From: Candidatus Thorarchaeota archaeon
Lineage (GTDB): Archaea; Asgardarchaeota; Thorarchaeia; Thorarchaeales; Thorarchaeaceae
Reading direction: 5' to 3'
Assembly: GCA_011364985.1 (NCBI GenBank)
Contig: RDOC01000001.1
Location: 159,576-223,575 of the forward strand
Length of the DNA: 64,000 nt
Shown: positions 3,194 through 20,909 of the stretch, piece after piece
How the letters are laid out: each line of letters opens with the position of its first letter
Numbering within the stretch: position 1 is the stretch's first letter
Notes under the pieces: generated by a model
Told to the model about the DNA's origin: nothing
Databases searched by the model: none
Seen by the model: the letters and a program-made list of their open reading frames with translations, nothing else
Position numbers and translations under genes: made by a program

Positions 3194-3250
3194 AGCCTGA
3201 AACAAACACCCCTGCGTAATAAAAAAGCTGCCATCTCAAGTGCAATGAAA

Positions 3251-5668
3251 TCATCTATGGAAAGTCGCAATCACTGTGTTGGACATTGGCAAAGCGCGAA
3301 TGTATGCAATTCCAACCTCCTTCACTCGGTTTACAATGCCTCCTCCAAAGACTTTCATCATAGGCAAGGAGAAATACGTAGGCACATGAATTTCCAATTC
3401 ATTTGGCAGCTGAGTCATCCGGATCTCAATCTGGTGTTGATTTGTAGATGCTCCAACTTCAATGTCTACCTCACCCAGTGACAGTGGAATTCTATCTACG
3501 AGGAGGGGTGTGGGAGAAGTATACCATTCATCAGGAATGGCCGGGAGGACAACGATATCCGACTCCATTTCAGATACCACCATTTCGCGCAAGAGGATGA
3601 GAAGATCTGCTGCTGCAATCATGCTGCATCCATCGCCAGAGTGTCCTGCACCCGAATGTGGATCGACAAACTCAGGAAGAGTATGGTATTCCGAGAGCAG
3701 CTCTATTGCTCTGCGAAGAATATTCCATGTGCCAGATTTGCGAAGCGTGAAGACGTAGTAGTGGGCCAAACGCAGTGCAAGATGACTGGAAAATCGTTTC
3801 TCCTCTCCCGGGATCATTACTAGATTCCTTCGCATAAGGTTGTCCAAAGTGGTGTTTAGCGACCATTGTTCAAGACTGCTGTCGATAGTACCCTTTCCGA
3901 GAAGAGCAATTGCTGCAAGGAGGTCAAGTGATGCAAGCGATAGATCGGGGTCATCCGCTTGGTCTACGACACTTTGGTAGACCCTCACTGATTTGGATTC
4001 AAGCCATTTTGCATAGTCGTTCTGCAGACTACAGAGCGATTCTGCCAATTGGGTCATTTCAAGTGCCTCGAGAGACACCACACCGATTCTTAGAGCTGCT
4101 AAATCCCATAGTGAATCAACAATATCACGAAGTCCAAACTGCATTCTTATTGGAACAGGAGCCACATCCGTTGTGATGTCCTCACGCAATTCAGCCGTTA
4201 CCGCCAGTATTTCATCGACACCCAAGAACTCCTCTTTCGGCTCACTGTCTTCTCTGATTTTACCATGAATACTCCCAGACTTCACTGATTCATCAGCCAA
4301 ATCGCCAGACTCACTTTGCACTCTGATTCTGGCCTCAATTGTCAATTGCATCTTAGAATAATATGCGCCAATCAATGGGCTTATTGTCTTCAGAAACGTC
4401 ATATCTCGGAAATAGAAGAAATACTGAAGAATTCCCCAAATCAACGAACTCTGGCTATTAGGAGGTGTTTCCTTTTCATCCGAAAACCACTTCCGGATTG
4501 CTTTAAGGGCAAGTTCTTTCGCTAGCTCGGAACAGCCAGAGCGGCATAGTGCAGAAAAGACTCTAGCCCATTCGATAGACTCGGTTGAGCCTACTGAGCT
4601 AATGCCTGAGTTCAGCTTTGTGTCAACTTGTTGTGCAAGAACGGCCTTCGCCTGCAGAGCGGCATCATTCAGCACTACCTCTGGAAAAGTAAGATTCGTT
4701 GTCTTTTCGGCGAAATCGAACCACATGCCTACATATTCATCCCTTACGTTCGTATTCATTTTGAAGGGGATTTCGTCTGTCTTCGTCATTCTGGATAAGG
4801 GACTCACAAAGAAATACTTCTTGGATTCAGCCGGAGCTAAATTGACTCTGTACTTCAGAACAGCAGTAACGAGACCTTTGACGCTAGAGAACTCTGTGTC
4901 CTTTCGGTCATTCTCTTCTTGGATAGTGGCGATCAGATTCGGATTATCAGCAGTTGAAAGAACGATTGACGATGCCAGCTTGTCAAAGAGCATGGCAACG
5001 TAACCATTGGAAATCATCATCTTCTGAGCGGAATCATACTCGACGGACTCCAATGGTTCGACCCCTCTAACGGAAGTGGGTCTAAGAACTGCATAGAAAA
5101 CAAACTCAGTATCATTCAGCGAATGGTTCTTTAAGTGAATCTCATTGTATAGAGCTTCGCGTCCGCTCGATGTGCCATGATAAATCTGGCGAATCACTTC
5201 GATCGCCCCAAAGAATTTTCTCCATTCGAAAAGCTGATCATCAGGACTATACAGCTCGATTCTTGATTCGTTTCGGTCAACCAAGGCAGGGAAGACCATA
5301 GAGCCTTTATCCTCAAACCAGAAATCAATGGACCCACATTCACGATTAGCTGTCACAAGTCCTGTTTCATCCATTATTGCATAATTGCTGGATCCCACTC
5401 CGCCAATGGTGATCCAGTTCTGGCTCATGTTATTGGAAAGGGCATCCTCGGATATACTGCCAGATTTGGAAATTGATGCCTGCTTTGTAGCCCAAGCGGG
5501 GAGCATCCATGATTCCGAGGAGGTATAAACTACCTTGTTCAATCCAACCTGTAGATCACGTATTTCAAGTGCTGCGGAAGAATGTTGAAAGGATGACGAC
5601 GGCACTTTGTTATTTCGTGCTACTCGCCTGAATCGCTCAATAAGGTTATCATCTGTTAGGTCCAACAC
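3251..5668 (-). CDS. Six-hairpin (alpha/alpha)6 glycosidase-like protein, possibly inactive
   Basis: 805 aa ORF: beta-rich N-terminus (NWITIG...GLVT...SIDFW), helical core, LPEFVDPHSGAGHSGDG...AAADLLILLREMVV and a C-terminal LPAIPDEW beta domain typical of GH15/65/95-clan proteins. Confidence 0.55.
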   Translation of the reverse strand: MLDLTDDNLIERFRRVARNNKVPSSSFQHSSAALEIRDLQVGLNKVVYTSSESWMLPAWATKQASISKSGSISEDALSNNMSQNWITIGGVGSSNYAIMDETGLVTANRECGSIDFWFEDKGSMVFPALVDRNESRIELYSPDDQLFEWRKFFGAIEVIRQIYHGTSSGREALYNEIHLKNHSLNDTEFVFYAVLRPTSVRGVEPLESVEYDSAQKMMISNGYVAMLFDKLASSIVLSTADNPNLIATIQEENDRKDTEFSSVKGLVTAVLKYRVNLAPAESKKYFFVSPLSRMTKTDEIPFKMNTNVRDEYVGMWFDFAEKTTNLTFPEVVLNDAALQAKAVLAQQVDTKLNSGISSVGSTESIEWARVFSALCRSGCSELAKELALKAIRKWFSDEKETPPNSQSSLIWGILQYFFYFRDMTFLKTISPLIGAYYSKMQLTIEARIRVQSESGDLADESVKSGSIHGKIREDSEPKEEFLGVDEILAVTAELREDITTDVAPVPIRMQFGLRDIVDSLWDLAALRIGVVSLEALEMTQLAESLCSLQNDYAKWLESKSVRVYQSVVDQADDPDLSLASLDLLAAIALLGKGTIDSSLEQWSLNTTLDNLMRRNLVMIPGEEKRFSSHLALRLAHYYVFTLRKSGTWNILRRAIELLSEYHTLPEFVDPHSGAGHSGDGCSMIAAADLLILLREMVVSEMESDIVVLPAIPDEWYTSPTPLLVDRIPLSLGEVDIEVGASTNQHQIEIRMTQLPNELEIHVPTYFSLPMMKVFGGGIVNRVKEVGIAYIRALPMSNTVIATFHR

Positions 5669-5872
5669 GGTCCAACTCCAATTTGTGAGAGTGAGAAGCT
5701 GGCTGATGAGTCCTAAGTTGCGGAATAGGTAATTAATGTAGCTTGTTCATTTTTCGGACATGTCATGGATACCTAAGCCTTAATAACACTCTCAAGCCCG
5801 ATTGTACAAAAGCTCGATATGATTGCGTATTAAGCCCAAATGCTGATTGACCAAAGATATGAGGGATTTGCT

Positions 5873-7060
5873 ATGGCGGAAGTCCTCACGAAACCGTCTC
5901 GTAGAATTAGGAATATGGTTGCAAAGGAACTCAGATTAATAGCTAAAGACAAGGTTGCTCTGTTCTTGATCTTTCTGCTTCCAGCCGCGCTGATTGGAAT
6001 GCTCTGGTGGGTTACGGATATGAGCGACATGGGAGATATTCAGTTAGGCGATGATGACGGCGGCACAGACATTGGCACAAGCACAAACATAACCGAAGCT
6101 GAGGACACAGGTATCAGCATTGGGCTATTAGACTTCGACACAACACGCGTCTATGAAGGAGAGGACCTCTCTACAAACTTCACAAACTACTTGGAGATGT
6201 TCGTTGACGATTTAATAATGTACAACGACACGGCAGATGCTTTTCGAGACTTGTATGAGGGCGAAATCCTTGGATATGTAATAATCCCTGATGGATTCGA
6301 GGCCAACCTGACTGAGAACATACCAACATATGTTGAAATTCATGTAGATGCCACAGCACTATTGGATCAAGCTTCTGTTCAAGGTGTAATTCAGGGGGCT
6401 ATAATAAGCTTCAGGGCATCAAAACTGTGGATTAGATCTGAAGTGTTTCCTTCGATGATAATCGAATTCCAGCCAGAAGGAAGCTACCTTGCTGCAGTCT
6501 TTGGAGCATTCATTGTCATAATATCCTCATACCTAGGAATTGCTATGACTTCTGCCCAATCCATTGTAGGTGACATTCCTCTTCGTAGAATGTTACTCAC
6601 CCCGACAAACAGGCTAGAAGTGATTACTTCTAAGGCCATCGCCTATGTGATTATTGGTTTCTTCCAATCGCTTCTTCTCATTTCCCTCTGGATTATTGCT
6701 TTCGATTTGGAGATGAACACTGGTTTTGGGAGTCTGGTTATCATTATGAGCCTAACAGCTTTGACAGGATCATCTACAGGGATAATCATCTCTGCAGCTG
6801 CAGGAACAAGATTGCAGGCCAATCAGATCTTTCTCTTTGTCATGTTTGGCTCTGTTATAATGTCAGGATTCTTTATCGACGTGGGTTGGCTCAATGAAGT
6901 ACTCCCCCTGAATCTGGGAATGAGCGTCCTGATTGATACAGCATTCAAAGGATTATCATTACTTGATATCATAGATGCCATTCTTAGACTTCTTGCAATT
7001 TCATTAGGGATGATACTAGCTGCATCATTCATTTTCTCTAGAAAGCCAACTCTTGACTAG
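5873..7060 (+). CDS. ABC-2 type transporter permease
   Basis: AKELRLIAKDK...LLP TM1, large extracellular loop (VIIPDGF), LRRMLLTPTNRLEVITSK motif and five further TMs. Start placed at ATG 5873. Confidence 0.9.
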   Translation: MAEVLTKPSRRIRNMVAKELRLIAKDKVALFLIFLLPAALIGMLWWVTDMSDMGDIQLGDDDGGTDIGTSTNITEAEDTGISIGLLDFDTTRVYEGEDLSTNFTNYLEMFVDDLIMYNDTADAFRDLYEGEILGYVIIPDGFEANLTENIPTYVEIHVDATALLDQASVQGVIQGAIISFRASKLWIRSEVFPSMIIEFQPEGSYLAAVFGAFIVIISSYLGIAMTSAQSIVGDIPLRRMLLTPTNRLEVITSKAIAYVIIGFFQSLLLISLWIIAFDLEMNTGFGSLVIIMSLTALTGSSTGIIISAAAGTRLQANQIFLFVMFGSVIMSGFFIDVGWLNEVLPLNLGMSVLIDTAFKGLSLLDIIDAILRLLAISLGMILAASFIFSRKPTLD

Positions 7061-8764
7061 GTGATGGACATGATAAAACAAGATCGTGACGAAGCATCAG
7101 AAATCGAAGCAAAACCAACCTTTGTAGAAGAAGCCTACTTCTCTGGGGGAAGACTGAACGAAGCCATTGATTGGTGTCTTGCTCGTCACGACCGAGAAAT
7201 TCACTGTATAGTGGAAGGAGTACTCAACAGTACAAGCAGGGAAGTACGTTTCAGCGGAAGGCTTCTGAAGATAAAGAAGAGTGTCTTGACACGGAGATTT
7301 GCCGCCCTTGTTGAAGAGGATTTGAGAAAGAGGAAGAGAGGAGATCTTGATGCAATTCTCACAGTGGGCGGAGAAGGGGCAACTCAAGAGGATGTTGCAG
7401 CCACCCAAATAACACTTCGTAATTACTTGAAAAGAAACCTCGCAGAAGACTTGTATTATGATGGACGTGACCTTCAGCAGGCAGTGAAGGACCTTGAAAA
7501 GATGAAGAGCACACAGAGCCTCTGTACTGTGTGGGGTAATAGAGCCTCTGATAGGCTTCCGATTATGATAAGCGGAATGGTTGTAGGATTTGCCATTGAA
7601 GCAATGCAGCCTGCTCGCGGCACGATTCTACCTGAAGGGTTTCTTGAAGTCAGGGTTGAGCCAGAGGGCTCTGTGGGAGATCCGAAGATATACTTGGTCG
7701 CTCAACCACAGCTATTCATTGGTCCAGGGTATAATCCCAATCTTACAATTATAGCCAGCAAGGTTTACATCCAGCCTTATGCCTGGAAAGAAGCGCCAGC
7801 CTATCGAGATGTCGTTGAAGCTAGGAACCTCACGGTCTCTCTAAAGACCGGCAAGAACCTAGTAGAGAATGTATCATTTGCATTAGAAGAGGGAGAGATG
7901 CTTGCAATAATCGGTGAGTCGGGAGCTGGCAAGTCAACAACTGTGAAGGCACTAATTGGGGATATACCTAGTACAGGAGTCGCCAGAATCGCAGGAGTCG
8001 ATTCCCGACAAACAACAAAGGTAAGGCACTTCTTTGGATATTGCCCACAAGACCTATCCTACATGTACGAGACCTTCACACCATTGGAGAATATCATTGC
8101 GTTTGGGAAACAATACGATATACCGGAGTGGCAATTGATTCAGAGAGGGAAATCGCTGCTTAGGGACTTTGGGATTCTGGAAAAAGGAAACAATGCTACA
8201 AGAGAATTGAGTGGAGGACAGCAACGACGCGTATCCATAGCTGTGGCCTTGGCCCACATGCCAAAGGTACTGTTGATGGACGAGCCGACTTCCGGACTCG
8301 ACCCAGACAACAGAAATGAGCTATGGAACTATCTAGCCTATATCAATCAGGAATATGGAACCTCAATCATTGTAATCACTCACTACCCGATAGAGGCAGA
8401 ATTCTGCGATAAGGTTGCGGTCTTTATTCGTGGAAAATCACTTGTTGCCTTTGGCAGCCCACAAAGACTCAAGGAGTCCCTCCCAAATAGAGGCTTTTCT
8501 GTTGGAGTCGTGCTTGAAGAGGTGGATCCGCGAGCAAGGACGATCCTTGAGGAAGTGGAAGGAGTCCGCTTTGTGCTTCAGCGAGGAGAGCTACTCAAGG
8601 TATTCACAGATGAGCCCCTTGAGAAAGTGGCTCAGAAATGTGTCTCCGCACTCGATACCAGAAAGATTGCGGTTAAGATTGTGAAGACAAAATCCGTGGC
8701 CGATATGGTGGACTATTACATAGCAATCACTAGGGGCCTAGTAACAGGAACAATCGAGAAGTGA
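7061..8764 (+). CDS. ABC-2 ATP-binding protein with ~245 aa N-terminal TrmB-C-like tandem domains
   Basis: Walker A GESGAGKST, LSGGQ, Walker B LLMDEPT, H-loop ITH. The N-terminal extension contains TVGGEGATQED. Confidence 0.9.
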   Translation: MMDMIKQDRDEASEIEAKPTFVEEAYFSGGRLNEAIDWCLARHDREIHCIVEGVLNSTSREVRFSGRLLKIKKSVLTRRFAALVEEDLRKRKRGDLDAILTVGGEGATQEDVAATQITLRNYLKRNLAEDLYYDGRDLQQAVKDLEKMKSTQSLCTVWGNRASDRLPIMISGMVVGFAIEAMQPARGTILPEGFLEVRVEPEGSVGDPKIYLVAQPQLFIGPGYNPNLTIIASKVYIQPYAWKEAPAYRDVVEARNLTVSLKTGKNLVENVSFALEEGEMLAIIGESGAGKSTTVKALIGDIPSTGVARIAGVDSRQTTKVRHFFGYCPQDLSYMYETFTPLENIIAFGKQYDIPEWQLIQRGKSLLRDFGILEKGNNATRELSGGQQRRVSIAVALAHMPKVLLMDEPTSGLDPDNRNELWNYLAYINQEYGTSIIVITHYPIEAEFCDKVAVFIRGKSLVAFGSPQRLKESLPNRGFSVGVVLEEVDPRARTILEEVEGVRFVLQRGELLKVFTDEPLEKVAQKCVSALDTRKIAVKIVKTKSVADMVDYYIAITRGLVTGTIEK

Positions 8765-8771
8765 TGAAGAA

Positions 8772-11700
8772 GTGGCTCTGACGAACTTGCTAAGACGAAC
8801 AGCGACTGGTTTCGCAGTTTTGGTTCTAGTGATGGTCGTTTCAGTTAGCCCTATGATTGCTACGATGTCTGTACTACCGGAGATGACTGAAGAATCACCG
8901 GTAGTCAGAATAGATGACGCCCTCTTAGATGATATGAACTCGAGCAATGAAACTGATATTCTTCTCACGTATAGTGATGCTGTTACCGAATACAAAGCGA
9001 AAACATCAATTGAGATGATAGACAGCTCAGCCAGAATCATTGAGACATTCACTGACCTGAATATGCTTCGGGTGAAGCTCATAGGAAGCTCGATTGGGAA
9101 ACTGGTCGAACTGAATTTCATCACGAATATATGGTCAAATGAGTTGTGTGAGGTGTCATCAGGCACCAATGCCTTGAGTCCAAGCGTTGCATCAAATCAG
9201 TACCAACCTGCTATCGACCTTATAGGTGGTCGGGGTCTCTGGGAGGAAGGATTCAATGGAACAGGTGTTGTCATTGCGGTTCTTGACACAGGTGTAGATA
9301 GCACCCATGCAGACCTTGACGACTTTGATGATAATGCCAGCACTTCTGACACGAAAGTTGCAGCTTCGGCATCCTTCTCCGAAGGCGATACACTGCCCAT
9401 CGATATAATAGGCCATGGGACTTACGCGGCATCAATTGCTGCAGGCACTGGGAATAGCTCGGAAGGCTTGTATGCCGGGATAGCTCCAGGAGCTACTATT
9501 CTTTCAGCCAAGGTAACACTGGGAGGCCTATACGCATCACCTAGCTGGATTGTATCAGGAATCGAATGGGCTGCAAGTAGAGGCGCAGACATCATCCTCC
9601 TGCCCTTCAACACCTTTGGTGCGCCAGGAGATGCTGTTTCTGTCGCAGTACGCGAAGCAGCAGAGAAGGGAATCTTCGTTGTTGCGGCGGCCGGTGACGA
9701 TGGACCAGATTACCTCACAATCATGTCACCAGGGGGTTCTGCTGCAACATTTACAGTTGGGGCGTATGATACCGAGAAGCAAGAGATTCCTGATTTCTCG
9801 GGAAGAGGACCATCTCTTGACCTCCTAACAAAACCGGACATTGTGGCACCAGGCGTAGGTGTTGTTGGAGCAAAGATGGGATCTGCGCTCGAAAGCCTTG
9901 GTTTCGGATCCTTTGACCTTGGCACCATTGGAAGCCTCTCGGGGCTTCTCGGTGGCGATAGCACCGGAGAAGACCTTGATGAGTACTACATGGTTGACGA
10001 TACAACAACTGCATCTGCATCAATCGTAGCAGGAGCTGCTGCAATTCTCATGCAGGCATTCGATAGGGTAACACCCATTGCCCTTGGCAATGTCCTAAGA
10101 GACACTGCAACTCTAATTCCCTACGGAGCAAATGATGGAGGTGCTGGACTTCTCAATCTGCAAGCAGCATTTAGCTATCTTCGAACCAAGCAAGAGCCCA
10201 TAAACCCCCAAAACAGAACAACGGGAACATCACAACTTGCTCTTGGTATCGTGACAACTGCAGGAACTGATTCCTCAACCATTCTACTAATGAGCAGCTA
10301 CGGTACTACTGTGGCAGCAGTTGATACACGAACTAGTCAAGACACCAGCATTCACATTCTCATGGGGATGTTTGCCCTCAGCTGGGAAAACAGAAGCCCC
10401 ACTAACCTCATGGAATTTGAAGTGAAAAGTGAACTTCACTACACTAGACTAGACTCAGGAGATCTTGGTTACAACAGAATGGTTGGAGTTCTTGCGTATG
10501 ATGAGATTTATGTGGTTCTGCTTGTGGAATCATATAATCTTACAACATATTCTTCTTTGCCACTTGACGGATTAAAGGTAACACCGTATATTCTTAATCT
10601 GGGTCCTAATCCTATTGATAATGTCAGTCTATTCCTGTCCTATTCTCTTGATCTCTTTAGTGACGGAGAGGATGACCATGGAAAATACTCGTTGGGCATG
10701 CAGGAGTTGTTTGTCTATGGCCAATCAGAAGACTTGGATAGCTTCTACTTCGGTCTGAATTCCAGCATCCCATTATCCGCCTTTGAGATTGGCAATTCTT
10801 CCGAGGTATCATCTCATATTTCAGATGACGGCTTGACCGGCTCAACCACATTCGACGGTTCGGTGGGTCTAGGGATGAAATGGCATTTTGGAGAACTCCC
10901 TGTGAAGAAACCAGCTAACGTTTCAATTGCTATGGGCTTCGGAGAGAATCGAACAGTCCTTGATGCGTCAATCCTAGCACAATGGGAAGCAGAGCCTCCA
11001 TCTACGGTTACTGATGAAGGAGACCTCATTATTGTCGAGGCAGACATTCCACGAGTTGCCGAGATAGGGGAGCATTATAAAACAAGGGCAGTCATGATCA
11101 ACGTGGGTGGAAATGCCTCACAAGCGACCGGCGCATTCTTGGTGGCAAAGGAAGAGGACAACGGACTATCGATGTTCAGCAGAGTGTTCTTGTTTGATGA
11201 AGTAAAACCATTCCATGCAGAGATACTAACAACAACTTGGAGCCCTGAGAAGATGGGCATAAACACTGCTGCATGGATTGCTGCACCAGATTTCGCTATT
11301 GTAACACAACTATTCTTGGGAACAGCGAATATCGTTGACCTGATCAATCTCTTGGACAACTTTCTCTTGCGAGATGTTTTTGTCATTGACCCAATCTCCT
11401 CAACATCAGTGTTCCCTAAACAGCTGCCATTTGCACCCTTTGATATCGTATTTCCCGCTGATTTTGGTTTATACACATTCGTAGTCGCCACAACAGAAAG
11501 CCTTGGAAACCTCACTGTACAGAAGTATGGCAATGCAAGCGATTGGGGTAATGCCACACTACCAAGTACAGAAACAGTGGAGGGTTATTACAACTTCTCA
11601 CTCTTTCTTCTAGCATCCCCGATAACCATTGATGGATACCATCGATGTGACTATGTAATCGATACGGACACAGGCTGGACCTACAATATTACGTTGGAAA

Positions 11701-13142
11701 CAAGCCTTAGATATCCTAGAGCAATGATGCTGGTTGACACCTCTCACGGGGGAGGATTGAGTTTCTTTGGAGGCTTTGGGGATGTGGGAGGTATGGGAGA
11801 TATTGGCGGAAGCATGGAATTCCCGCTTGCACAGGATGATAGCGGAGGCATTTCACTTGATTCAGGATTCGACCTCAGCAGCCTTGGAGACCTAGGTGAT
11901 CTTACCGGTCTATTGGATGCATTTCGTCTCACAACATTCTCAGGACTATCAAGCATGAAGAAAGCGATGGCCAACAGAGGTCTTGATTTGGTTGAAACGC
12001 CAGGAATTGAGCTTGATGAAGACCTTCTAAGCCAGTTCTCGGCAGTCTTTGTCTTCAGTCCAACGGAAGAATTCAACAGCACAGACGTTGACATGCTCAG
12101 GAAATATACAAGAGATGGTGGCAAGCTAATAGTCCTTGGAGATGAGGATGGTACAGCCAATCTAACTGGCATTAACAATTTGATTTCGCCTTTTGGATAC
12201 TCGATGCAAGGCGCTCATCGGCAAGAGAACACCACAGACATCATAAGTGGAACGCTGCTTGGGAGTAGTCTAGACTCAATCTGGCTTGGTGGTGGAACCT
12301 ACATTCTGGGTAATCAGTCGTTATCCACCGCTTTCGTCAATGGAAAACCTGTTGTCCTCCTTGACGATTCAAGACCAGAGTTGGCCCTCTTTGGGTCTTC
12401 AAGAATATTCATGAACAAGAATCTTGCAAAATGCAACAATTCTCTTCTATTAGATAATCTAATCACATACCTATTGAGAAACACGCTGACGGGAGAGGCA
12501 TCACTGGCTGAAGACACCCACTTATACGAGGCGGGAAAGAGCGTCTATCTGAATCTTGTGATAACAGACATACATGGGCGTCCTGTGAACGATTTGTTCG
12601 TGGCAATAGCCTTTGAGCTGCCCAATGATACGCTTGTCTTTTTTATTGCCGGATTTGTGGAGAACGGACTCTACTCGTCCCAGTTCACTCCGAGCTACTG
12701 GAAATCAGCAGGAAGAATCAACGGTATCTTTGTGATAATGGGTGGGGAGAACTATGCCAATACCTATGCCGGCATAGGATTCGAGCTTTATGAACCAAGT
12801 GCCACTACAGGAGTCGAGCCGCCGTTCAGACTCTTGACAATGGCCCAGATAGCCATGTTAGCTGCCGGCGGCATCTTTGGCTCTCTAATACTGGGGCTCG
12901 TCTACAATAGAAGAGCCAAGCGCAAGAAGATGCGCATCATTGAGATTGAGCCCGAATTAGTGAGAGAGATTGACAATACGCTAAATGCATTGCTTGCTGC
13001 TTTCACGCAGATAGAACAGCTCATCCAACGAGAAGACCTAGACCGAGTACAGAAAATAGAATCGTTGAGAGGACTTATGGAAGGGCTCGAAAAGGGACAA
13101 AAGGAGTTCAAGAAGGTGAGCGATAGAGTGGGAGGTGTGTGA
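8772..13142 (+). CDS. Membrane-anchored S8 subtilase-like protein with GIFT/DUF4350-like domain (Site-1 protease-like architecture; probable pseudoprotease)
   Basis: Signal peptide, prodomain, VAVLDTG (Asp), GHGT (His), KPDIVAPG. The Ser motif reads DTTTASASIVAGAAA. Then LVDTSHG...FSPTEEF...GGKLIVLGD...NNLISPFG...LFGSSRIF, a TM and a coiled-coil tail. Confidence 0.85.
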   Translation: MALTNLLRRTATGFAVLVLVMVVSVSPMIATMSVLPEMTEESPVVRIDDALLDDMNSSNETDILLTYSDAVTEYKAKTSIEMIDSSARIIETFTDLNMLRVKLIGSSIGKLVELNFITNIWSNELCEVSSGTNALSPSVASNQYQPAIDLIGGRGLWEEGFNGTGVVIAVLDTGVDSTHADLDDFDDNASTSDTKVAASASFSEGDTLPIDIIGHGTYAASIAAGTGNSSEGLYAGIAPGATILSAKVTLGGLYASPSWIVSGIEWAASRGADIILLPFNTFGAPGDAVSVAVREAAEKGIFVVAAAGDDGPDYLTIMSPGGSAATFTVGAYDTEKQEIPDFSGRGPSLDLLTKPDIVAPGVGVVGAKMGSALESLGFGSFDLGTIGSLSGLLGGDSTGEDLDEYYMVDDTTTASASIVAGAAAILMQAFDRVTPIALGNVLRDTATLIPYGANDGGAGLLNLQAAFSYLRTKQEPINPQNRTTGTSQLALGIVTTAGTDSSTILLMSSYGTTVAAVDTRTSQDTSIHILMGMFALSWENRSPTNLMEFEVKSELHYTRLDSGDLGYNRMVGVLAYDEIYVVLLVESYNLTTYSSLPLDGLKVTPYILNLGPNPIDNVSLFLSYSLDLFSDGEDDHGKYSLGMQELFVYGQSEDLDSFYFGLNSSIPLSAFEIGNSSEVSSHISDDGLTGSTTFDGSVGLGMKWHFGELPVKKPANVSIAMGFGENRTVLDASILAQWEAEPPSTVTDEGDLIIVEADIPRVAEIGEHYKTRAVMINVGGNASQATGAFLVAKEEDNGLSMFSRVFLFDEVKPFHAEILTTTWSPEKMGINTAAWIAAPDFAIVTQLFLGTANIVDLINLLDNFLLRDVFVIDPISSTSVFPKQLPFAPFDIVFPADFGLYTFVVATTESLGNLTVQKYGNASDWGNATLPSTETVEGYYNFSLFLLASPITIDGYHRCDYVIDTDTGWTYNITLETSLRYPRAMMLVDTSHGGGLSFFGGFGDVGGMGDIGGSMEFPLAQDDSGGISLDSGFDLSSLGDLGDLTGLLDAFRLTTFSGLSSMKKAMANRGLDLVETPGIELDEDLLSQFSAVFVFSPTEEFNSTDVDMLRKYTRDGGKLIVLGDEDGTANLTGINNLISPFGYSMQGAHRQENTTDIISGTLLGSSLDSIWLGGGTYILGNQSLSTAFVNGKPVVLLDDSRPELALFGSSRIFMNKNLAKCNNSLLLDNLITYLLRNTLTGEASLAEDTHLYEAGKSVYLNLVITDIHGRPVNDLFVAIAFELPNDTLVFFIAGFVENGLYSSQFTPSYWKSAGRINGIFVIMGGENYANTYAGIGFELYEPSATTGVEPPFRLLTMAQIAMLAAGGIFGSLILGLVYNRRAKRKKMRIIEIEPELVREIDNTLNALLAAFTQIEQLIQREDLDRVQKIESLRGLMEGLEKGQKEFKKVSDRVGGV

Positions 13143-13143
13143 G

Positions 13144-14133
13144 ATGTCTGATGCTGAGAAGACTCAAGCACTCGAGATTGACATCAAGGACCTCAAGGTT
13201 GCCTTTGGTGATTTTTACGCACTTAATGGGGTTTCGTTTTTCGCTTACAAGAAGGAGTTCCTCGGAATCATTGGGGCCTCTGGAGCAGGGAAGACCACTG
13301 TTCTCCGTGTTCTTACAGGACAGGTCGGACCAACCTCTGGTCAAGCCTTTGTTGGCGGCTTTGATGTGACTAAGAAGAGCGACCTAATCAGCCTTCTAGT
13401 TGGCTACGTTCCTCAACTAGAGCATCTCAGTCTGTACTATGACTTTACCGCCCTTCAAAATGCCGAGTTCTTTGGTAGGTGTTTTGGCCTGAGGCCTAAG
13501 GAGATAGAGAAGCGTGCTCGAAACATCCTGACAATTCTTGGTTTCGATGAAGAACTCATGACAAAGGCGGTAAAGAGACTCTCAGGTGGAGAGAGGAAGC
13601 GTGTTTCCATTTGTCTTGGCATGATTCATGATCCCCCAGTGCTGTTGCTCGACGAACCTACAACCGGCCTCGATGCACACCTCAGACACGAGACTCTGAA
13701 CTACCTGAAAGAACTGAACTACGAACTGGGAACAACGATGGTCATCATCTCCCATGACCTTGAGATTGTTGACTATTGTACACGAGTATGCCTGCTGGAA
13801 GACGGGCTCATTAGCCAATTTGGCACTCCAGAGGAGTTGATCTCCACGCTGCCCGGAAAAGGCGAGAGTTTGAGGATTGTTCTTCCAAAGATAACGACTG
13901 GAATCATGAACCAAGTGATGTCACTTCCTGGCGTCGAATATGTGGCTGCAGCCGGTAGAAACGCAGTCAAGCTTTTCATTGATGATCCGGATAAGCAGAT
14001 TCTTCCAATTATCAAAATGCTCAACCAGAGAGGTATACCCTTTGAGGAGATATCCCTAGTAGAGAGCGATTTCTTCGATTACTTCCAAGTGAAGCCTTGG
14101 AAAGACAATGGTGGAGGAGAGAGTACTCCGTGA
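13144..14133 (+). CDS. ABC-2 type ATP-binding protein
   Basis: GASGAGKTT, LSGGE, LLLDEPT, ISH and a C-terminal DUF4162/ACT-like extension. ATG 13144 follows the stop of the preceding gene. Confidence 0.92.
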   Translation: MSDAEKTQALEIDIKDLKVAFGDFYALNGVSFFAYKKEFLGIIGASGAGKTTVLRVLTGQVGPTSGQAFVGGFDVTKKSDLISLLVGYVPQLEHLSLYYDFTALQNAEFFGRCFGLRPKEIEKRARNILTILGFDEELMTKAVKRLSGGERKRVSICLGMIHDPPVLLLDEPTTGLDAHLRHETLNYLKELNYELGTTMVIISHDLEIVDYCTRVCLLEDGLISQFGTPEELISTLPGKGESLRIVLPKITTGIMNQVMSLPGVEYVAAAGRNAVKLFIDDPDKQILPIIKMLNQRGIPFEEISLVESDFFDYFQVKPWKDNGGGESTP

Positions 14134-17100
14134 AACGAAACAGAATACTCCTAGTATTATTGTGTGCTTGTGTGCTAATCGGACTCCAAGCATTAATTGG
14201 AGATCCCACAGGGCAATCTGTTGCCATCATACAGGACAGGTCCAGTGCAGTAGTCGCGGAGATTGCTCCGTTCGACACCGCGATTGTGTGGTCCAATGAC
14301 ACAGGAGGACAGGTGGCTGGTATTGCCATTGCTAATTTTGATGGCGATAACTACGATGAGATGGCGGTGGTCACTCAGGCCGGGGTGTTACAGCTCTATG
14401 ATCACACTGGGAATCGTCTCTGGAGCAGAGACCTGATGACTCCAGCCAATGACATCGCGACCTTGGATAGGAACGCCGACGGAGAAATGGAGATCGTGGT
14501 GGGAACTGACGATGGCTTCATGGTGATGACAGCATCCCAGACCGTTCTTGCCAATATTGCCCTTCCAAATCCAGTACAGGCCGTTGATTCCGGTGACCTT
14601 GATCTGGACACCTTTGACGAGGTCTTCATTGGATGCGATGACAACCATCTCTACGCCTATGAGGCAAATGGCACCTATATCTGGGAGTTTGCAAGCAATG
14701 GGCCCATCACTCAGGTTCTGGCCGCTGATGTTGACCTCGACAGTGGAGCAGAGGTGCTTGTCGGGTCCTCAGCTGGAAAATTCGCTCTGGTCGAAACCAC
14801 TGGAGCCGTCACATTCAGTGTAGACAAGGCTTATGCTATCACTGGAGTGGCTGCAGGAAACCTGCTGAGCGGGGGAAATCTAGAGGTAGCCTTTGGTACC
14901 GCTGGGGGCGAAATTGCAGTCTATCGAAGTGCCGGCACTCCAGAATATGGCATCTACCATGATGATGCAGTGACCGCCTTGCACATTGGACAGCTTGTTT
15001 CTGGAGGCTTTGATGAGATGGCCTTTGGCACTGCAGGAAACGAACTGCACGTCTACAATGGCACCGGCTCTATGCAATGGAATAAGACGTTGGCAGGCCA
15101 AGTAAACAGCATCCGCTTTGCCAATGTGGGCGGTCTCCCGAACAATCAGCTCATCTCTGGTACTGGGGCTGGGACCCTCAACGTCTACAATGCCACAGGT
15201 TACAGGGTGGTTCAGACTACCCTTGATACTTTCCAAGGAGTCATTGCCATCGGTGATATCGACACCAATGGCAACAGCGAGTATGCCGCAGGAACCAACA
15301 ACGGCATCATTAACGTCTACGGAAGGGATCTTGATGGCGACGACCTTGCAGATGCGCGAGAAACCCTCATCGACCTCACTAACCCCGCAGAGCCTGACTC
15401 GGACTATGACAATTTAGATGATGGTGAAGAGGTTCTTCAGTATGGTACAGATCCAAATAGCGACGACTCAGACTCAGATAAGCTGAAGGACTTCTCAGAA
15501 GTTCACACCTATGGAACCGATCCCAACGATGCTGATTCTGACGATGACCTTCTCACAGACTGGCAAGAGATCTACCTCGGTACCGATCCCAATGACGAAG
15601 ACTCGGACGGAGATGACTTGACAGACTTTGAAGAGAACAACGTGACTCTCACGGACCCACTTGATTCTGACACGAACAACAATGATATCAATGACGGGGC
15701 TGACGATAATGATGGCGATGGCCTGACAAATCTGCAAGAAGTGCGTCTTACGCTTACCGATCCCAATGATGTGAACACAGATGGAGATGCGCTCAGCGAT
15801 TATTATGATGATGAGGACGCAGATAGCCTCGCCAACTGGAAGGAGATTCAGGTCGGTGCGGACCCGCTTGATCCTGACTCAGATGATGACTTGCTTTTGG
15901 ACGGTGCAGAGGTCAAGATATGGAAGTCCAGCCCCACGAATCCAGACACTGACGGAGACGATTTGACCGACTATGAAGAAGTCATGATTGTTGGCTCGAA
16001 CCCCACCAAAGCTGATACTGACGAAGACACGCTGTCTGACTACGAAGAATACGTGACCTACGGAACCAACGTCACCAATGCCGACTCGGACTATGACGAC
16101 TTGGAAGATGCAGACGAGATCAATGAGTACTTCACAGACCCTCTCGATTGGGACTCGGACGGAGATACTCTGTCGGATGGCGACGAAGTAAATGTATATG
16201 GTACTGACCCCAACTCGGTGGACACGGATCTAGACACGCTTTCGGATGATTATGAGATTACACAGGGAACGAACCCCAAGAAGGCAGACACCGACGGAGA
16301 CACGATAAATGACGCGCTTGAATTGCTTACCTATTTCACCAATGCCACAAATGTCGACACCGATGGCGACCTGATTCGGGACAACGATGAGATCAAGTAT
16401 CTGGCATTTGGTTTCGACCCCACGGATTCGACTTCTTGGGGGCAGCCAGAGAGCGATTATGATTATGATGCTGACGGTGACTTGCTTACTAATGGTCAGG
16501 AGATATACCTCACCCGAACGCATCCAGGCCGAATTGACTCAGACCTAGATGGTACCAACGACAATCTTGAGGATGCTGACTTGGATGACATCAACAACTA
16601 CGATGAGATCAACGTGACTGATACAGACCCTCGAAATCCTGATACCGATGGGGATGAAGTGAAGGATGGTGATGAGTATCTCATTTTAGGAACTGACCCC
16701 AACGATGAGGACACGAATGATAATTCAATCAACGATTATGATGAGGACCCCGATGAGGACAACCTCTCCAATGGTGTCGAGCTCTATATCACCGATACTG
16801 ACCCCTTGGACGCAACAACTCACGGGACAACGCCAGACGACGAATATGATGGTGACGGAGATTTCTTGCCAAACTGGTTTGAAGTCTTTAGAACTGGGAC
16901 TGACCCGCTGTACAATGATACCAATGACAATGGCATCTTTGACTGGGAGGAGGACCCAGACAATGATGATTTGACCAATCTGCAGGAGTATGAGGTATGG
17001 AGAGATTTTGGGTACGAGTGTGATCCCCTCGATGCAGACTCTGACAATGACCAACTAACGGATGGTGAAGAGGTCCTCTACACGCTCACCGATCCCAGCG

Positions 17101-20100
17101 ACAATGATGACGACGATGACACGATTCTCGATGGTCAAGACGACCAGGACAACGATGGCCTAACAAACATAGAGGAACTGCGGATCTATAACACGAATGC
17201 CACCAATTGGGATACCGACGGAGACATGATCCGCGACGGGCTTGAGATTCAGATAGGGCTGAATGCGACAAACTTTGACACGGATGGGGATGGGATCTAT
17301 GATGGATGGTTCGATGAGGATGGGGACGGAATCTATGACCCTGAAGAGCTAGGAGAAGATGTGGATGCAGATGGCATTGTTGACCCTGAAGAAACCGACC
17401 CGAACAACGCAGATTCCGACGGGGATGAGTTAGATGATTATGAGGAATACTTAGTGGGCACGAATCCGTTGAAACCAGATTCGGACGAAGATTTGCTGCT
17501 TGATGGTCAGGAGGTTCTTCACTTCGGGACGAATCCGCTTTCAAACGACACTGATGGAGATCTCCTTGATGACTATATTGAGGTGAATGTTACCCTTACC
17601 GACCCAACTAATATGTGGTTCAATGGCACTCACACGGATTACCAAATTGACTCGGATAATGACATGCTGTCAAATGGTGACGAAATCTACATCTATGACA
17701 CTAGCCCCGGCGACTTCGACTCCGATGACGACCTCATTGGAGATGGCGAAGAGATACTTGTCTATGGCTCAGACCCGCTAAAATGGGACTCCGATGGAGA
17801 CCTGCTATCGGACTACGATGAGATTATGAGATACGGGACGAACCCCGCGGCCCAGGACTCTGACGCAGATCAGGTCGATGACTATTCGGAGATTGTGATT
17901 CTTGGCACTGATCCGAACCTATGGAGCACAGCAGGCAACGGCACTTCAGACTATGACCGAGATGAGGATGGAGATGGTCTAAGCAACGGTCTCGAACTCT
18001 ATGGTTACCACAGCAATGCCACGTCTTCTGACACTGATGGAGATGAATTGGAAGATGGCATAGAGGTCTATCTCGCAGGGAGCAGCCCGACCGACAAAGA
18101 CACTGACGATGACGGTGTTAGTGACTACTTAGAATACATGGTCTACCACACAGACGCTTCGGGCTCGGATTCAGACTCAGACGATTTGACGGACTACTAT
18201 GAAATCTACGTGTCCCTTACGAGTCCTACTGACTGGGACTCAGACGATGACCAGCTCTCTGACGGTGACGAGGTGAATGAATATGGGACAGACCCCAAGG
18301 CAGCGGACTCGGACAACGACCAGCTCAATGACAGAAGGGAGCTGTTTGAGGTTGGTACCGACCCCTTGCTCAACGATACTGACGGAGACACCCTCAGTGA
18401 CTACGAAGAATGGGTTATTTACGGTACAGACCCGCTAGTGGCCGATGCAGACGAAGATGGACTTAACGACGCAGAAGAAATAGAGAACGGAACTGACCCA
18501 GAGAATGAAGACTCCGACTTTGATTCCCTTAGCGATTATGATGAGGTCAATATCTACGAAACCAGTCCTATTAACGCAGACACAGACTTTGATAACCTTG
18601 CAGATAGTGATGAAATATTCAATAGCAAGACCGATCCCAATCGCGCGGACACCGATGGGGACTCAATCCCGGATGACCTTGATGATAAGGACGCCGATGG
18701 AATAAGCAACTTCGATGAGATCTACGTGTATGAAACCAACTGCACTCTCTTTGACACCGACGGGGATATGCTAGGGGATGGCTATGAAATCGCACAAAAT
18801 CCATGGGTAACCGACCCGAATGAGGTTGATACCGATGATGATTTGCTTAGCGACTGGGATGAAATCTTCATGTGGTCTAGCAATCCAACACGCAAGGATA
18901 CCGACGGGGATCTCCTCCAAGATGGTGAGGAAGTTCTGACCTGGCACACCGACCCTAACCTCGATGATACAGACGCCGATATGGTCAACGATTATGATGA
19001 AATCAAGGTCTTCGAAACAAACGCGTTGGACCCCGATTCTGATGATGACAATTTGTCCGATGGTTATGAGTTGTTCGTCTACAACACGGACCCCCTCAAT
19101 GAAGACACAGACAATGACAGACTACTGGACGACGAAGAGGAATTCTATGGTACTGACCCAAGAGTGGAAGATACAGATGAAGACGAACTAACAGACTATG
19201 AAGAAGTGTACTTGACGGGTACAGATCCGACCCTATACAGTACGGAGGGCGACGGAATTTCAGACGCCGACCGTGACGGCGATAACGACATGCTCACAAA
19301 TTCTCAGGAGATTCGTCTGACTAAAACAAACCCTGCTAGCAATGATACCGATGCCGATGGCAAAATCGATGGATTAGATGACGAGGATAGAGACCTCTTG
19401 ACCAACTACGAGGAATGCGTCATTACTGAAACTGACCCCAGAGACAGAGACTCCGACGACGACGGTGTTAGCGACCTGAACGACGATCAGGACGGGGATG
19501 GACTCACGAATGGTGATGAGGTGCACATTTATCTGACAGACCCGCTACGTCGCGATACTGACGGAGACAAACTGTCTGACAGAGAAGAGGTTGAAGACTA
19601 CGGCACAGATCCGCTCGTCAAGGACACGGACATGGACGAAATCGAGGACTACGAGGAGATAAACACCTATCACACCAATGCGACCTACTTTGATACAGAC
19701 TACGACCTGCTCAGCGATTGGATCGAAATCTTCCTAACTGAAACTGACCCGACGAATATGTGGTACAATGCGACTCATACGGACTATGAGATTGACTCAG
19801 ATGGTGACTTCTTATCCAATGGTGCAGAGATCTACAATTACGCCACATCACCGGGAGACCCTGATTCGGACAACGACAACTTGCTTGATGGCGAAGAAAT
19901 CGCACTGGGAACGGACCCCCTTGAAGAAGACTCAGACTTGGATAATCTCATTGACGGCTTGGAAGTGCACGTATACCAAACTGACCCCCTCTCCGAGGAC
20001 ACCGACGAAGACCAAATCAATGACTACGATGAAGTGCGCATCTACTTCACGAACCCAAACGTTGAAGACACGGATCAAGACAACCTATCAGATTACGATG

Positions 20101-20909
20101 AAATCTTCGTCTACTTTACGGACCCGAACTCCGGAGACTCCGATAGGGATCAGGTCCCTGACTATACCGAAGTTGTAACCTATGCCGAGTATAACATGAA
20201 TCCCTGGCAGGCAGATTCTGACAGCGACGGGCTGAGCGACAGCCTTGAACTCTACACAATAGGCACGAACCCCGGTCTGAATGACACAGACGCGGATGGA
20301 CTTGACGACTATGCAGAATACTACACCTACAAAACCTCCCCGTTGGCTCCTGATACAGACCAAGATGGCTGGACGGACTATGAAGAAGTCACCATCTACG
20401 GGACCGACCCGCTAAAGGTCGACACGGATGCAGACGGTCTCATGGACTCAATGGATTTCAATCCGCGGCTCCACTGGGTCGTGCCAATCATCGTTCTACT
20501 ATTCGTTGGCGGCATCACCGCAGTAGTCTATAAACGCGTACGTAGAACTACACGCAGAGAGGAGTACATCACAAAGGCAGAGCCTGCAAGCCTCGGTCTT
20601 GAGAAGGGGATGGACATCGCGGTGGAGTACAAGATACGCGAAGGCAAGGTGGTCTTTGGCGTGGCGATACGGAATAACTCTGCGAACCCCATGAGCAATG
20701 TGCAGGTGGTGCTTGGTATACCCGAACTGACAGATACCATCCAGAGCAAGAGCGCAGGTTCTGTTGAGCCCGGCGATAGTGCAGTGGTAGAGATCGCCTT
20801 CGAATTGCAGCCCGGCGCCGAGGGCGAGCTAGTAGGCATGGTGGAATATGACTCCGTCGAGGGTGAGCACCGTATAGTGAACCTAAAGCCCGTCAGGATT
20901 GTAGCATAG
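14130..20909 (+). CDS. Giant single-pass surface protein: FG-GAP-like beta-propeller, TSP3-like Ca-binding repeats, TM, cytoplasmic Ig-like domain
   Basis: GTG 14130 overlaps the upstream TGA (GTGA) and is followed by signal peptide MKRNRILLVLLCAC. DxDxDGxxE(V/I)xVG blades, then D(S/T)DxDxLxDxxE...TDP repeats, TM WVVPIIVLLFVGGITAVVY plus KRVRR, and a C-terminal beta sandwich. Confidence 0.9.
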   Translation: MKRNRILLVLLCACVLIGLQALIGDPTGQSVAIIQDRSSAVVAEIAPFDTAIVWSNDTGGQVAGIAIANFDGDNYDEMAVVTQAGVLQLYDHTGNRLWSRDLMTPANDIATLDRNADGEMEIVVGTDDGFMVMTASQTVLANIALPNPVQAVDSGDLDLDTFDEVFIGCDDNHLYAYEANGTYIWEFASNGPITQVLAADVDLDSGAEVLVGSSAGKFALVETTGAVTFSVDKAYAITGVAAGNLLSGGNLEVAFGTAGGEIAVYRSAGTPEYGIYHDDAVTALHIGQLVSGGFDEMAFGTAGNELHVYNGTGSMQWNKTLAGQVNSIRFANVGGLPNNQLISGTGAGTLNVYNATGYRVVQTTLDTFQGVIAIGDIDTNGNSEYAAGTNNGIINVYGRDLDGDDLADARETLIDLTNPAEPDSDYDNLDDGEEVLQYGTDPNSDDSDSDKLKDFSEVHTYGTDPNDADSDDDLLTDWQEIYLGTDPNDEDSDGDDLTDFEENNVTLTDPLDSDTNNNDINDGADDNDGDGLTNLQEVRLTLTDPNDVNTDGDALSDYYDDEDADSLANWKEIQVGADPLDPDSDDDLLLDGAEVKIWKSSPTNPDTDGDDLTDYEEVMIVGSNPTKADTDEDTLSDYEEYVTYGTNVTNADSDYDDLEDADEINEYFTDPLDWDSDGDTLSDGDEVNVYGTDPNSVDTDLDTLSDDYEITQGTNPKKADTDGDTINDALELLTYFTNATNVDTDGDLIRDNDEIKYLAFGFDPTDSTSWGQPESDYDYDADGDLLTNGQEIYLTRTHPGRIDSDLDGTNDNLEDADLDDINNYDEINVTDTDPRNPDTDGDEVKDGDEYLILGTDPNDEDTNDNSINDYDEDPDEDNLSNGVELYITDTDPLDATTHGTTPDDEYDGDGDFLPNWFEVFRTGTDPLYNDTNDNGIFDWEEDPDNDDLTNLQEYEVWRDFGYECDPLDADSDNDQLTDGEEVLYTLTDPSDNDDDDDTILDGQDDQDNDGLTNIEELRIYNTNATNWDTDGDMIRDGLEIQIGLNATNFDTDGDGIYDGWFDEDGDGIYDPEELGEDVDADGIVDPEETDPNNADSDGDELDDYEEYLVGTNPLKPDSDEDLLLDGQEVLHFGTNPLSNDTDGDLLDDYIEVNVTLTDPTNMWFNGTHTDYQIDSDNDMLSNGDEIYIYDTSPGDFDSDDDLIGDGEEILVYGSDPLKWDSDGDLLSDYDEIMRYGTNPAAQDSDADQVDDYSEIVILGTDPNLWSTAGNGTSDYDRDEDGDGLSNGLELYGYHSNATSSDTDGDELEDGIEVYLAGSSPTDKDTDDDGVSDYLEYMVYHTDASGSDSDSDDLTDYYEIYVSLTSPTDWDSDDDQLSDGDEVNEYGTDPKAADSDNDQLNDRRELFEVGTDPLLNDTDGDTLSDYEEWVIYGTDPLVADADEDGLNDAEEIENGTDPENEDSDFDSLSDYDEVNIYETSPINADTDFDNLADSDEIFNSKTDPNRADTDGDSIPDDLDDKDADGISNFDEIYVYETNCTLFDTDGDMLGDGYEIAQNPWVTDPNEVDTDDDLLSDWDEIFMWSSNPTRKDTDGDLLQDGEEVLTWHTDPNLDDTDADMVNDYDEIKVFETNALDPDSDDDNLSDGYELFVYNTDPLNEDTDNDRLLDDEEEFYGTDPRVEDTDEDELTDYEEVYLTGTDPTLYSTEGDGISDADRDGDNDMLTNSQEIRLTKTNPASNDTDADGKIDGLDDEDRDLLTNYEECVITETDPRDRDSDDDGVSDLNDDQDGDGLTNGDEVHIYLTDPLRRDTDGDKLSDREEVEDYGTDPLVKDTDMDEIEDYEEINTYHTNATYFDTDYDLLSDWIEIFLTETDPTNMWYNATHTDYEIDSDGDFLSNGAEIYNYATSPGDPDSDNDNLLDGEEIALGTDPLEEDSDLDNLIDGLEVHVYQTDPLSEDTDEDQINDYDEVRIYFTNPNVEDTDQDNLSDYDEIFVYFTDPNSGDSDRDQVPDYTEVVTYAEYNMNPWQADSDSDGLSDSLELYTIGTNPGLNDTDADGLDDYAEYYTYKTSPLAPDTDQDGWTDYEEVTIYGTDPLKVDTDADGLMDSMDFNPRLHWVVPIIVLLFVGGITAVVYKRVRRTTRREEYITKAEPASLGLEKGMDIAVEYKIREGKVVFGVAIRNNSANPMSNVQVVLGIPELTDTIQSKSAGSVEPGDSAVVEIAFELQPGAEGELVGMVEYDSVEGEHRIVNLKPVRIVA
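15327..20465 (+). repeat. Coding tandem repeat array (~22-23 aa bacterial TSP3-like units)
   Basis: Recurring D(S/T)DxDxLxDxxExxxxxTDPxxx over ~1700 aa, roughly 70-80 units estimated from length/period. Units diverge at the nucleotide level. Confidence 0.9.

Follow-up and report, generated by a model that had tools for sequence, protein, structure and literature searches.

Does an archaeal genome encode a relative of the eukaryotic Site-1 protease (S1P; also MBTPS1 or SKI-1), and if so what might such a relative do? The question is raised by a gene in a 64,000-nucleotide stretch of DNA from Candidatus Thorarchaeota archaeon (contig RDOC01000001.1, positions 159,576 to 223,575), referred to here as the window, in which an earlier note made from the letters alone had recognized the domain order of S1P and proposed an archaeal relative of the S1P lineage. 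The gene lies at positions 8772-13142 of the forward (+) strand and encodes 1456 amino acids according to the list of open reading frames (ORFs); the segment that had first drawn attention, 11715-13142, corresponds to residues 982-1456, the last third of the ORF. The product is predicted to be anchored in the membrane at the cell surface and belongs to a family found across the Asgard archaea, which we call family A. As described below, the subtilase active site of this family is dead, and the tie to S1P runs through a second set of Asgard proteins, family B, in which the catalytic residues are intact.

Domain layout and the GIFT domain

All features of the protein are encoded on the forward strand. 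A hydrophobic segment at residues 6-37 (8787-8882), marked by a Kyte-Doolittle scan as a signal anchor or signal peptide, is followed at about residues 45-135 (8904-9176) by a subtilase propeptide, recognized from profile alignments to Pro-Tk-SP (PDB chain 3afg_A) and to the propeptide region of family B; residues 13-418 of 3afg_A align with the family-A profile from profile position 45 onward. The S8 subtilase domain, which has no working active site, spans residues 140-475 (9189-10196) as delimited by Pfam, HMMER alignments and column counts, and it carries the S8 fold signature, with a Pfam Peptidase_S8 match over residues 163-453 (E 7.1e-42) and an S8 match to Tk-SP in a search of PDB sequences (E 4.1e-38). 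An insertion of 402 amino acids follows (residues 476-877, 10197-11402), placed by hhalign mapping and absent from family B, for which we find no Pfam match at E <= 0.01, no PDB sequence match at E <= 10 with an 11-sequence profile, and neither internal duplication nor similarity to the other domains of the protein. To its right, profile alignment suggests a beta-sandwich at residues 878-997 (11403-11762), in the position occupied in S1P by the P-like subdomain.

The C-terminal part begins with the GIFT domain (residues 982-1239, 11715-12488), inside which lies a Gly/Asp-rich loop of about 55 amino acids (residues 998-1052, 11763-11927). It continues with an MG-like beta-sandwich (residues 1240-1343, 12489-12800) defined by the strands of an AlphaFold2 model at a predicted local distance difference test (pLDDT) score of ~80-85; the MG domains of complement C3/C5 match this sandwich at Z 12 with a root mean square deviation (rmsd) of 1.9-2.3 over ~100 aligned residues, and the Pfam MG2 match to the protein is weak (E 0.12). 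The hydrophobicity scan and the model both place a predicted transmembrane helix at residues 1354-1378 (12831-12905) and a cytoplasmic segment at residues 1379-1456 (12906-13139), in which the basic stretch NRRAKRKK comes directly after the helix. The tail had been put at about 75 residues; it has 78, is modelled by AlphaFold2 as two helices (1394-1419 and 1425-1453), and is conserved in the family-A consensus. All 25 N-x-S/T sequons fall within residues 56-1285, the predicted ectodomain, and the positive cluster lies C-terminal to the transmembrane helix; the predicted topology is type I, with a C-terminal transmembrane helix and a cytoplasmic tail. The proposed succession of S8 domain, GIFT domain, transmembrane helix and tail is borne out by Pfam, by fold matches and by the transmembrane and tail predictions.

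The identity of the GIFT domain is supported at the level of both sequence and predicted structure. The Pfam model IFT52_GIFT matches the whole protein with 37.9 bits and the 475-amino-acid C-terminal piece with 41.8 bits (cut-off 27.2), and in a phmmer search of PDB sequences the same piece matches the IFT52 chain 5fmr_A (E 1.9e-5). A 13-sequence family profile of the C-terminal part finds IFT52 at E 1.5e-14, and S1P (E 0.094) and OST48 (E ~0.6) are the only non-IFT52 proteins among its eight PDB matches in all. The AlphaFold2 model, which spans residues 960-1456, has a mean pLDDT of 71, with 75-90 in the GIFT part. When the model is compared with known structures by VIA-align, IFT52 is the best match (5fms_B, Z 21.9, rmsd 2.1, 191 residues aligned), followed by OST48 (Z 18-19 over 288-327 residues, with 8b6l_N at Z 19.0) and human S1P (9csd_A, Z 18.2, rmsd 3.3, 204 residues aligned, chain residues 619-874; 8uw8_A, Z 17.7); the two S1P chains together span rmsd values of 3.1-3.3 and 202-204 aligned residues, starting at 617 or 619. 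Other folds resembling class I glutamine amidotransferases (GATases), the ThuA-like and GH42 GATase-like domains, reach only Z 12-15. Foldseek places OST48 (E 7.9e-13) and IFT52 (E 1.9e-10) at the top, and human S1P is not among the 27 Foldseek matches listed, its match being seen in the VIA-align comparison. The doubt that the domain might not be GIFT- or class-I-GATase-like can be set aside, as it is GIFT by Pfam and by fold and scores above the other GATase-like folds; profile and model matches together confirm residues 982-1239 as a true GIFT domain.

Although IFT52 (PDB 5FMS, 5FMR, 8BD7) provides the best match to the family-A GIFT domain in both sequence and fold, it is a cytoplasmic protein without an S8 domain, transmembrane helix or ABC transporter context. 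OST48/Wbp1 (PDB 6S7O chain G and others) shares with family A a GIFT-like domain, a second domain and a C-terminal transmembrane helix, but its domains pack differently, giving an rmsd of 13-14 A over the larger comparison, and its sequence signal is that given above. Two further Asgard GIFT proteins came to light. The genome from which the window derives encodes, on contig C17 (L001:1471-2661), a 396-amino-acid protein without a signal sequence, in which a GIFT domain at the N terminus (59.1 bits with IFT52_GIFT, cut-off 27.2) precedes a long coiled coil; by its sequence this is an IFT52-like layout in a Thorarchaeon. A 1134-amino-acid Asgard protein (L047:1286-4687, minus strand) has tandem GIFT domains and CARDB/NEW3 domains but no S8 domain, and one of its GIFT domains matches OST48_N with 67.4 bits (cut-off 36).

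The subtilase active site of family A

The window protein has 134 close homologues of ~1450 amino acids that are 51-87% identical in the C-terminal part, and those that are named come from Thorarchaeota or Promethearchaeota. Among 301 genomes sampled from the phylum, it is matched in 69 of the 76 genomes of its own genomic family, and five other genomic families yield long matches (E 1e-17 to 1e-72) in ORFs of ~1400-1500 amino acids. Ten such distant homologues were fetched, all ten with an S8 domain and nine with GIFT-type Pfam matches. A profile search of 1.84 billion representatives returned 133 proteins at E <= 0.001; one full-length family-A member belongs to a cluster named Hodarchaeales. 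The GIFT-only remote matches of this search, in a scan covering 58 of the 133 that were picked for matching in the GIFT core, are multi-GIFT prokaryotic proteins that are not S1P-like.

HMMER alignments to Tk-SP (3afg_A and 9ues_B), 8jmw_A and subtilisin BPN' show how the active site of the window protein differs from that of a working subtilase. The catalytic Asp172 and His215 are kept, but Thr413 stands opposite Ser221 of the GTSMA motif, and Asp309 opposite the oxyanion residue Asn155. These departures extend across the family. Among 110 full-length close relatives the nucleophile column holds Thr in 59, Ala in 45 and Ser in six, and in the ten distant Asgard homologues it holds Ala in eight, Leu in one and Asp in one. 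The oxyanion Asp is present in all 120 proteins of these two sets, in which Asp172 is kept in 117 and His215 in 112. A further 37 representatives are similar, with Gly (14) and Ala (12) at the nucleophile column ahead of Ser (4), Thr (4), Phe, Arg and a gap (one each), and mostly Asp at the oxyanion column, with Asn in five; all four of the Ser rows have the oxyanion Asp, and three of the four lack the His. The full set of catalytic Asp and His, oxyanion Asn and nucleophilic Ser (D/H/N/S) occurs in no family-A member examined, and the aligned columns indicate that family A is a pseudo-protease.

Among solved structures, Tk-SP of Thermococcus kodakarensis (PDB 3AFG, 9UES) comes closest to the S8 domain and its propeptide (E 3.5e-84 with the family-A profile), but this protease is active and secreted and has neither a GIFT domain nor an anchor in the membrane. 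In the relevant passage of one report, CspA and CspC of Clostridioides difficile are described as S8 folds that lack catalytic residues and act as non-enzymatic regulators (PMC7200643). They share the inactive S8 domain with family A, and the NCBIfam models CspBA and CspC_non_triad give weak local matches far under their cut-offs, but CspA and CspC are soluble bacterial spore proteins with no GIFT domain, transmembrane helix or ABC transporter context.

Family B and the relationship to S1P

As outlined in passages of two structural reports, human S1P (PDB 8UW8, 8UWC, 9CSD) consists of a signal peptide, A and B pro-domains, the Peptidase S8 domain, a P-like beta-sandwich, the GIFT domain (617-998), a transmembrane helix and a tail (PMC11231238, PMC12067269), with D218, H249, N338 and S414 as catalytic residues (PMC12067269), and one of these passages describes it as the only protease of the proprotein-convertase type with a GIFT subdomain (PMC11231238). 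The order of signal, propeptide, S8 domain, sandwich, GIFT domain, transmembrane helix and tail is common to family A; the S8, P-like and GIFT order can be followed from S1P to the window protein by way of family B and the GIFT superposition, and is kept, with the insertion of 400 amino acids. The differences on the family-A side are equally plain and include the absent catalytic Ser and oxyanion Asn, the insertion, the Gly/Asp-rich GIFT loop, the MG-like sandwich, the long helical tail and the ABC-2 operon described below.

Direct comparison of family A with S1P gives a mixed picture. Pfam MBTPS1 models have no match to the window protein at E <= 1, and are matched below threshold in three of the ten distant family-A members. 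The family-A profile does find S1P among PDB sequences (E 1.2e-41), but at a rank of ~53 and with the best stretch in the S8 domain, which as a proxy is nearer to Tk-SP and the subtilisins than to S1P. In a language-model search for look-alikes of the window protein, the third-ranking cluster is eukaryotic S1P (score 0.85); we regard this only as a lead.

The much stronger connection is seen in family B. When PF23090 (MBTPS1_4th), the S1P-specific GIFT model, was run over the 301 genomes it gave matches in 27 and exceeded its cut-off in 18, with no match in the window's own genome (74% complete) or in 14 control genomes. Nearly all of the matches fell in ORFs of ~970-1310 amino acids that do not belong to family A, and it is these that constitute family B, proteins of 970-1330 amino acids annotated only as S8 family serine peptidase. 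Seven were fetched (L041:1777-5700, which is P0225; L045:3516-7328; L046:572-3496; and, on the minus strand, L042:3288-7058, L043:2726-6550, L044:3488-6397 and L048:1790-4720), in which the S8 domain extends over ~165-460 and the GIFT domain begins at ~580-610, and several of which end in a zinc ribbon; P0267 of Odinarchaeum yellowstonii is a further example. The window's own genome yielded no family-B paralogue when queried with the L046 protein, a result that at 74% completeness does not amount to absence. In the best 120 of 6526 family-B profile matches, the named proteins come from Odin-, Hod-, Heimdall-, Hermod-, Loki- and Thorarchaeota, and D/H/N/S is intact in all 120. A transmembrane helix lies within the last 250 residues in 108 of the 111 members of at least 1150 amino acids, with a median tail of 61 amino acids.

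Searched against PDB sequences, the family-B profile matches human S1P at E 3.9e-76 (260 bits), in one uninterrupted stretch that pairs profile positions 158-777 with S1P residues 195-850 (8uw8_A) and runs through the S8, P-like and GIFT domains. The spacing agrees as well, the family-B S8 domain reaching ~460 and its GIFT domain starting at ~590 vs 617 in S1P. In this search S1P ranks fourth or fifth, after Tk-SP (392 bits) and 8jmw_A and before the subtilisins (at most 242 bits); the single sequence L044 gives no S1P match at E <= 1e-20, and matches Tk-SP at E 1.9e-34. Look-alikes of a family-B protein in the language-model search, again a lead only, consist of one Thorarchaeota cluster in first place and then nine eukaryotic S1P clusters (score 0.92), above any bacterial cluster, with a family-A cluster at 0.88.

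Family B also clarifies the short motifs that the earlier note had set beside those of S1P. The S1P strings WDQYH, EEEYFPEEI, LVIFSD, ANIPALNELL and LYGDS are present in the S1P chain and align to the family-B profile, and a profile-profile map brings LVDTSHG, SPTEEFNSTDV, KLIVLGD, ANLTGINNLISPFG and LFGSS of the window protein to the same family-B columns. All five GIFT motifs therefore correspond through family B, but the direct signal between the C-terminal family-A profile and S1P is weak, as noted above, so that the parallel rests on the fold and on transitive alignment.

The two Asgard families are themselves clearly related. An hhalign comparison aligns them collinearly over 794 columns (probability 100, E 1e-102), matching the propeptide and S8 domain of the window protein (P0001, 48-475) to residues 58-476 of the family-B protein L041, the beta-sandwich (878-997) to 478-594, and the GIFT domain with the following sandwich (1053-1321) to 595-917; residues 476-877, the insertion, have no L041 counterpart. 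In profile alignment the sandwich region of L041 stands opposite the S1P stretch between the S8 and GIFT domains. Family B is thus collinear with family A from the propeptide to the post-GIFT sandwich and likewise has a C-terminal transmembrane helix and tail, but differs in keeping D/H/N/S, in lacking the insertion, in its frequent zinc ribbon end, and in having no ABC-2 permease or ATPase neighbours at any of the seven loci.

A tree of S8 domains (72 rows, with representatives chosen by hand; IQ-TREE quick search, LG+G4, SH-aLRT support only) was rooted on three thermitase-type S8-GIFT fusions, and covers the Asgard families with S1P and classical subtilases absent. All 40 family-A rows form one clade (SH-aLRT 99) within the family-B radiation. 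The sister of this clade, P0191, is an active metagenomic subtilase of 1719 amino acids that could represent an intermediate form; its D/H/N/S set is intact, its propeptide is of the Tk-SP type, and it has some of the insertion seen in family A. Family A most likely descends from S1P-like membrane subtilases, having lost catalysis and gained the 400-amino-acid insertion and a longer helical tail. Common descent of the Asgard and eukaryotic S1P architectures is likely from these alignments, and of the two families it is probably B that is the more important lead. The suggestion of an archaeal relative of the S1P lineage is therefore sustained as homology at the superfamily level, by way of family B, but does not hold in the sense that the window gene encodes a working S1P. 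A full-text literature search found no link between Asgard archaea and S1P or IFT52, the broader matches for MBTPS1 and archaea, and those listed for archaeal homologues of S1P, being judged by title, and literature joining the GIFT domain and archaea concerned only OST and cilia topics.

The ABC-2 gene neighbourhood and possible functions

What, then, does a dead subtilase of this kind do? The family-A gene lies in a run of five genes on one strand, in which the junctions are 0 to 8 nucleotides or overlaps. The run starts with an ABC-2 permease (5840-7060, +; Pfam ABC2_membrane_3, E 1.5e-24) and an ABC ATPase with an N-terminal TrmB-like domain (7061-8764, +; ABC_tran E 6.5e-27, Regulator_TrmB E 3.4e-6). 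These are followed by the family-A gene, a second ABC ATPase (13135-14133, +; ABC_tran E 4.2e-26) that overlaps the 3′ end of the family-A gene by 8 nucleotides, and, as last gene, a membrane protein of 2270 amino acids (14097-20909, +). Pfam matches give this giant protein an N-terminal beta-propeller (weak BBS2/BBS7-type matches), ~1600 amino acids of TSP3 calcium-binding-type repeats, a transmembrane helix and a C-terminal domain; it scores 310.7 bits with NCBIfam CglD, a gliding lipoprotein, below the cut-off of 400. Two other loci, L007 and L008, carry the same five ORFs at 59-60% identity, with the giant ORF similar in size and position.

We compared 13 family-A loci in all (the window, L007, L008 and L021-L030). 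Pfam-confirmed ABC genes adjoin the family-A gene at eight of them (the window, L007, L008, L021, L022, L023, L025 and L029), down to 22-28% identity, with the order divergent or rearranged at L025 and L029. In the GldA/GldF/GldG transporter, which is of the ABC-2 type, GldG is the accessory protein with the GIFT domain and is held between two hydrophobic segments; the role of a GIFT domain beside an ABC transporter is, for GldG, still an open question. Family A resembles GldG in having a GIFT ectodomain between N- and C-terminal hydrophobic segments that is encoded with an ABC-2 permease and ATPase, and differs in that GldG has no subtilase module and the window protein falls under the ABC_transp_aux cut-off. 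ABC_transp_aux (GldG family, PF09822) is over its cut-off in four of the ten distant family-A members. Taken together with the GIFT domain, the hydrophobic segments on either side of it and the ABC-2 neighbours, this leads us to propose, with roughly even confidence, that the family-A protein belongs to the adjacent ABC-2 transporter as an ectodomain subunit without catalytic function, playing a GldG-like role on an inactivated S1P-like scaffold. Its place would be outside the cytoplasm, as an accessory subunit to the permease and ATPase pair encoded next to it. Without a nucleophile the propeptide would presumably stay uncut, and the subtilase module could serve as a scaffold or binding module; the transmembrane helix and helical tail would couple the ectodomain to the cytoplasmic side, and in Thorarchaeota the protein would probably act jointly with the downstream TSP3-repeat surface protein.

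Several smaller features of these loci deserve mention. The N-terminal extension of the ATPase at 7061-8764, ~240 amino acids long, corresponds to the C-terminal part of the TrmB regulator model and is kept in L007, L021 and L023. An unrelated protein, P0237, has an ABC-2 membrane domain fused to a GIFT domain. Upstream of the window cluster an ORF without a Pfam or NCBIfam match (3251-5668, minus strand) is one of several ORFs of ~770-805 amino acids, with similar-sized ORFs in the same place in L007 (442-2760, minus strand) and L008 (1674-3986, minus strand); the L007 ORF and an 802-amino-acid ORF in L027 (3434-5842, +), which overlaps the start of the family-A gene, are also without Pfam matches. 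A TPR gene with Pfam SNAP matches lies convergent at the 3′ end of the family-A gene at six of the 13 loci (L024:5266-6225 and L028:5638-6465, and, on the minus strand, L025:9899-10849, L026:10123-10950, L029:10421-11245 and L030:10494-11339), and its product is a possible partner of the helical tail; in the window itself, a TPR gene on the minus strand (2525-3205) matches SNAP weakly.

A number of observations weigh against a GldG-like subunit. There are no adjacent ABC genes at five of the 13 loci, L024, L026, L028 and L030 (all of one genomic family, f7) and L027 (of f30); the window protein scores 19.5-21.7 bits with ABC_transp_aux, under the cut-off of 34.7; NCBIfam GldA gives 103 and 131 bits on the two ATPases vs a cut-off of 402.6; and the GldF and GldG models are unmatched among the six operon proteins, with nothing over any curated cut-off. 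The loci without ABC genes, the conserved tail and the convergent TPR/SNAP genes would all be accommodated by the main rival reading, in which family A would be a stand-alone surface receptor, adhesin or envelope scaffold that signals or is anchored through its helical tail, for example to a TPR/SNAP-like protein, with the ABC genes a matter of mere synteny or co-regulation. We consider this somewhat unlikely, since the ABC linkage persists at the lowest identities compared, even where it is rearranged, and in the window the family-A gene touches or overlaps an ABC gene at either end. With Thr or Ser at the nucleophile column, some members might retain a residual or unusual chemistry. That family A is an archaeal Site-1 protease cutting membrane-bound regulators is nonetheless highly improbable: it has the domain order and topology of S1P, a chain of homology to it through family B and a language-model lead, but cleavage of the S1P type is very unlikely because nucleophile and oxyanion residue have been lost across the family, with the His lost in several members, and the intact family B is a better candidate for such a role.

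The same comparisons bear on whether the likeness to S1P reflects ancestry at all, or whether S8 and GIFT domains were joined in separate events, one in Asgard archaea and one in eukaryotes. Such fusions do arise, as P0186, P0209 and P0217, the outgroup of the S8 tree, join a GIFT domain to a thermitase-type S8 domain (P0209 vs 1thm_A, E 7.5e-77). Moreover, judged by the S8 domain only, both families are at least as near to bacterial subtilisins as to S1P, the archaeal Tk-SP having the closest S8 domain of known structure, and by sequence the family-A GIFT domain is far closer to IFT52 than to S1P. We nevertheless regard convergence as unlikely, given that the alignment of the family-B profile to S1P runs unbroken through S8 domain, sandwich and GIFT domain with matching spacing, that the membrane topology is the same, with the C-terminal helix nearly constant in the longer family-B members, and that, in the look-alike search with a family-B protein, the S1P clusters of eukaryotes come next, ahead of any from bacteria. 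A fuller scenario, which we put forward tentatively and at rather less than even confidence, is that Asgard family B, as an active subtilase tethered to the membrane, is a prokaryotic sister lineage of S1P, extending from Odin- to Hod-/Heimdallarchaeia and predating S1P, and that family A is an ancient pseudo-enzyme offshoot that came to serve an ABC-2 machine as its extracytoplasmic arm.

The window gene belongs to a family of dead subtilases that is conserved over great evolutionary distances in Asgard archaea and linked to ABC-2 transporters, and as such it offers a testable handle on the role of GIFT domains beside ABC transporters. The likeness in layout hints that S1P-type proteins have archaeal relatives, and if family B is the closest prokaryotic kin of S1P, then S1P joins the eukaryotic membrane-trafficking and signalling parts that have Asgard roots. 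Should the sister-lineage scenario be true, both membrane-tethered proteolysis of the S1P type and the non-catalytic re-use of its scaffold would be older than the eukaryotes.

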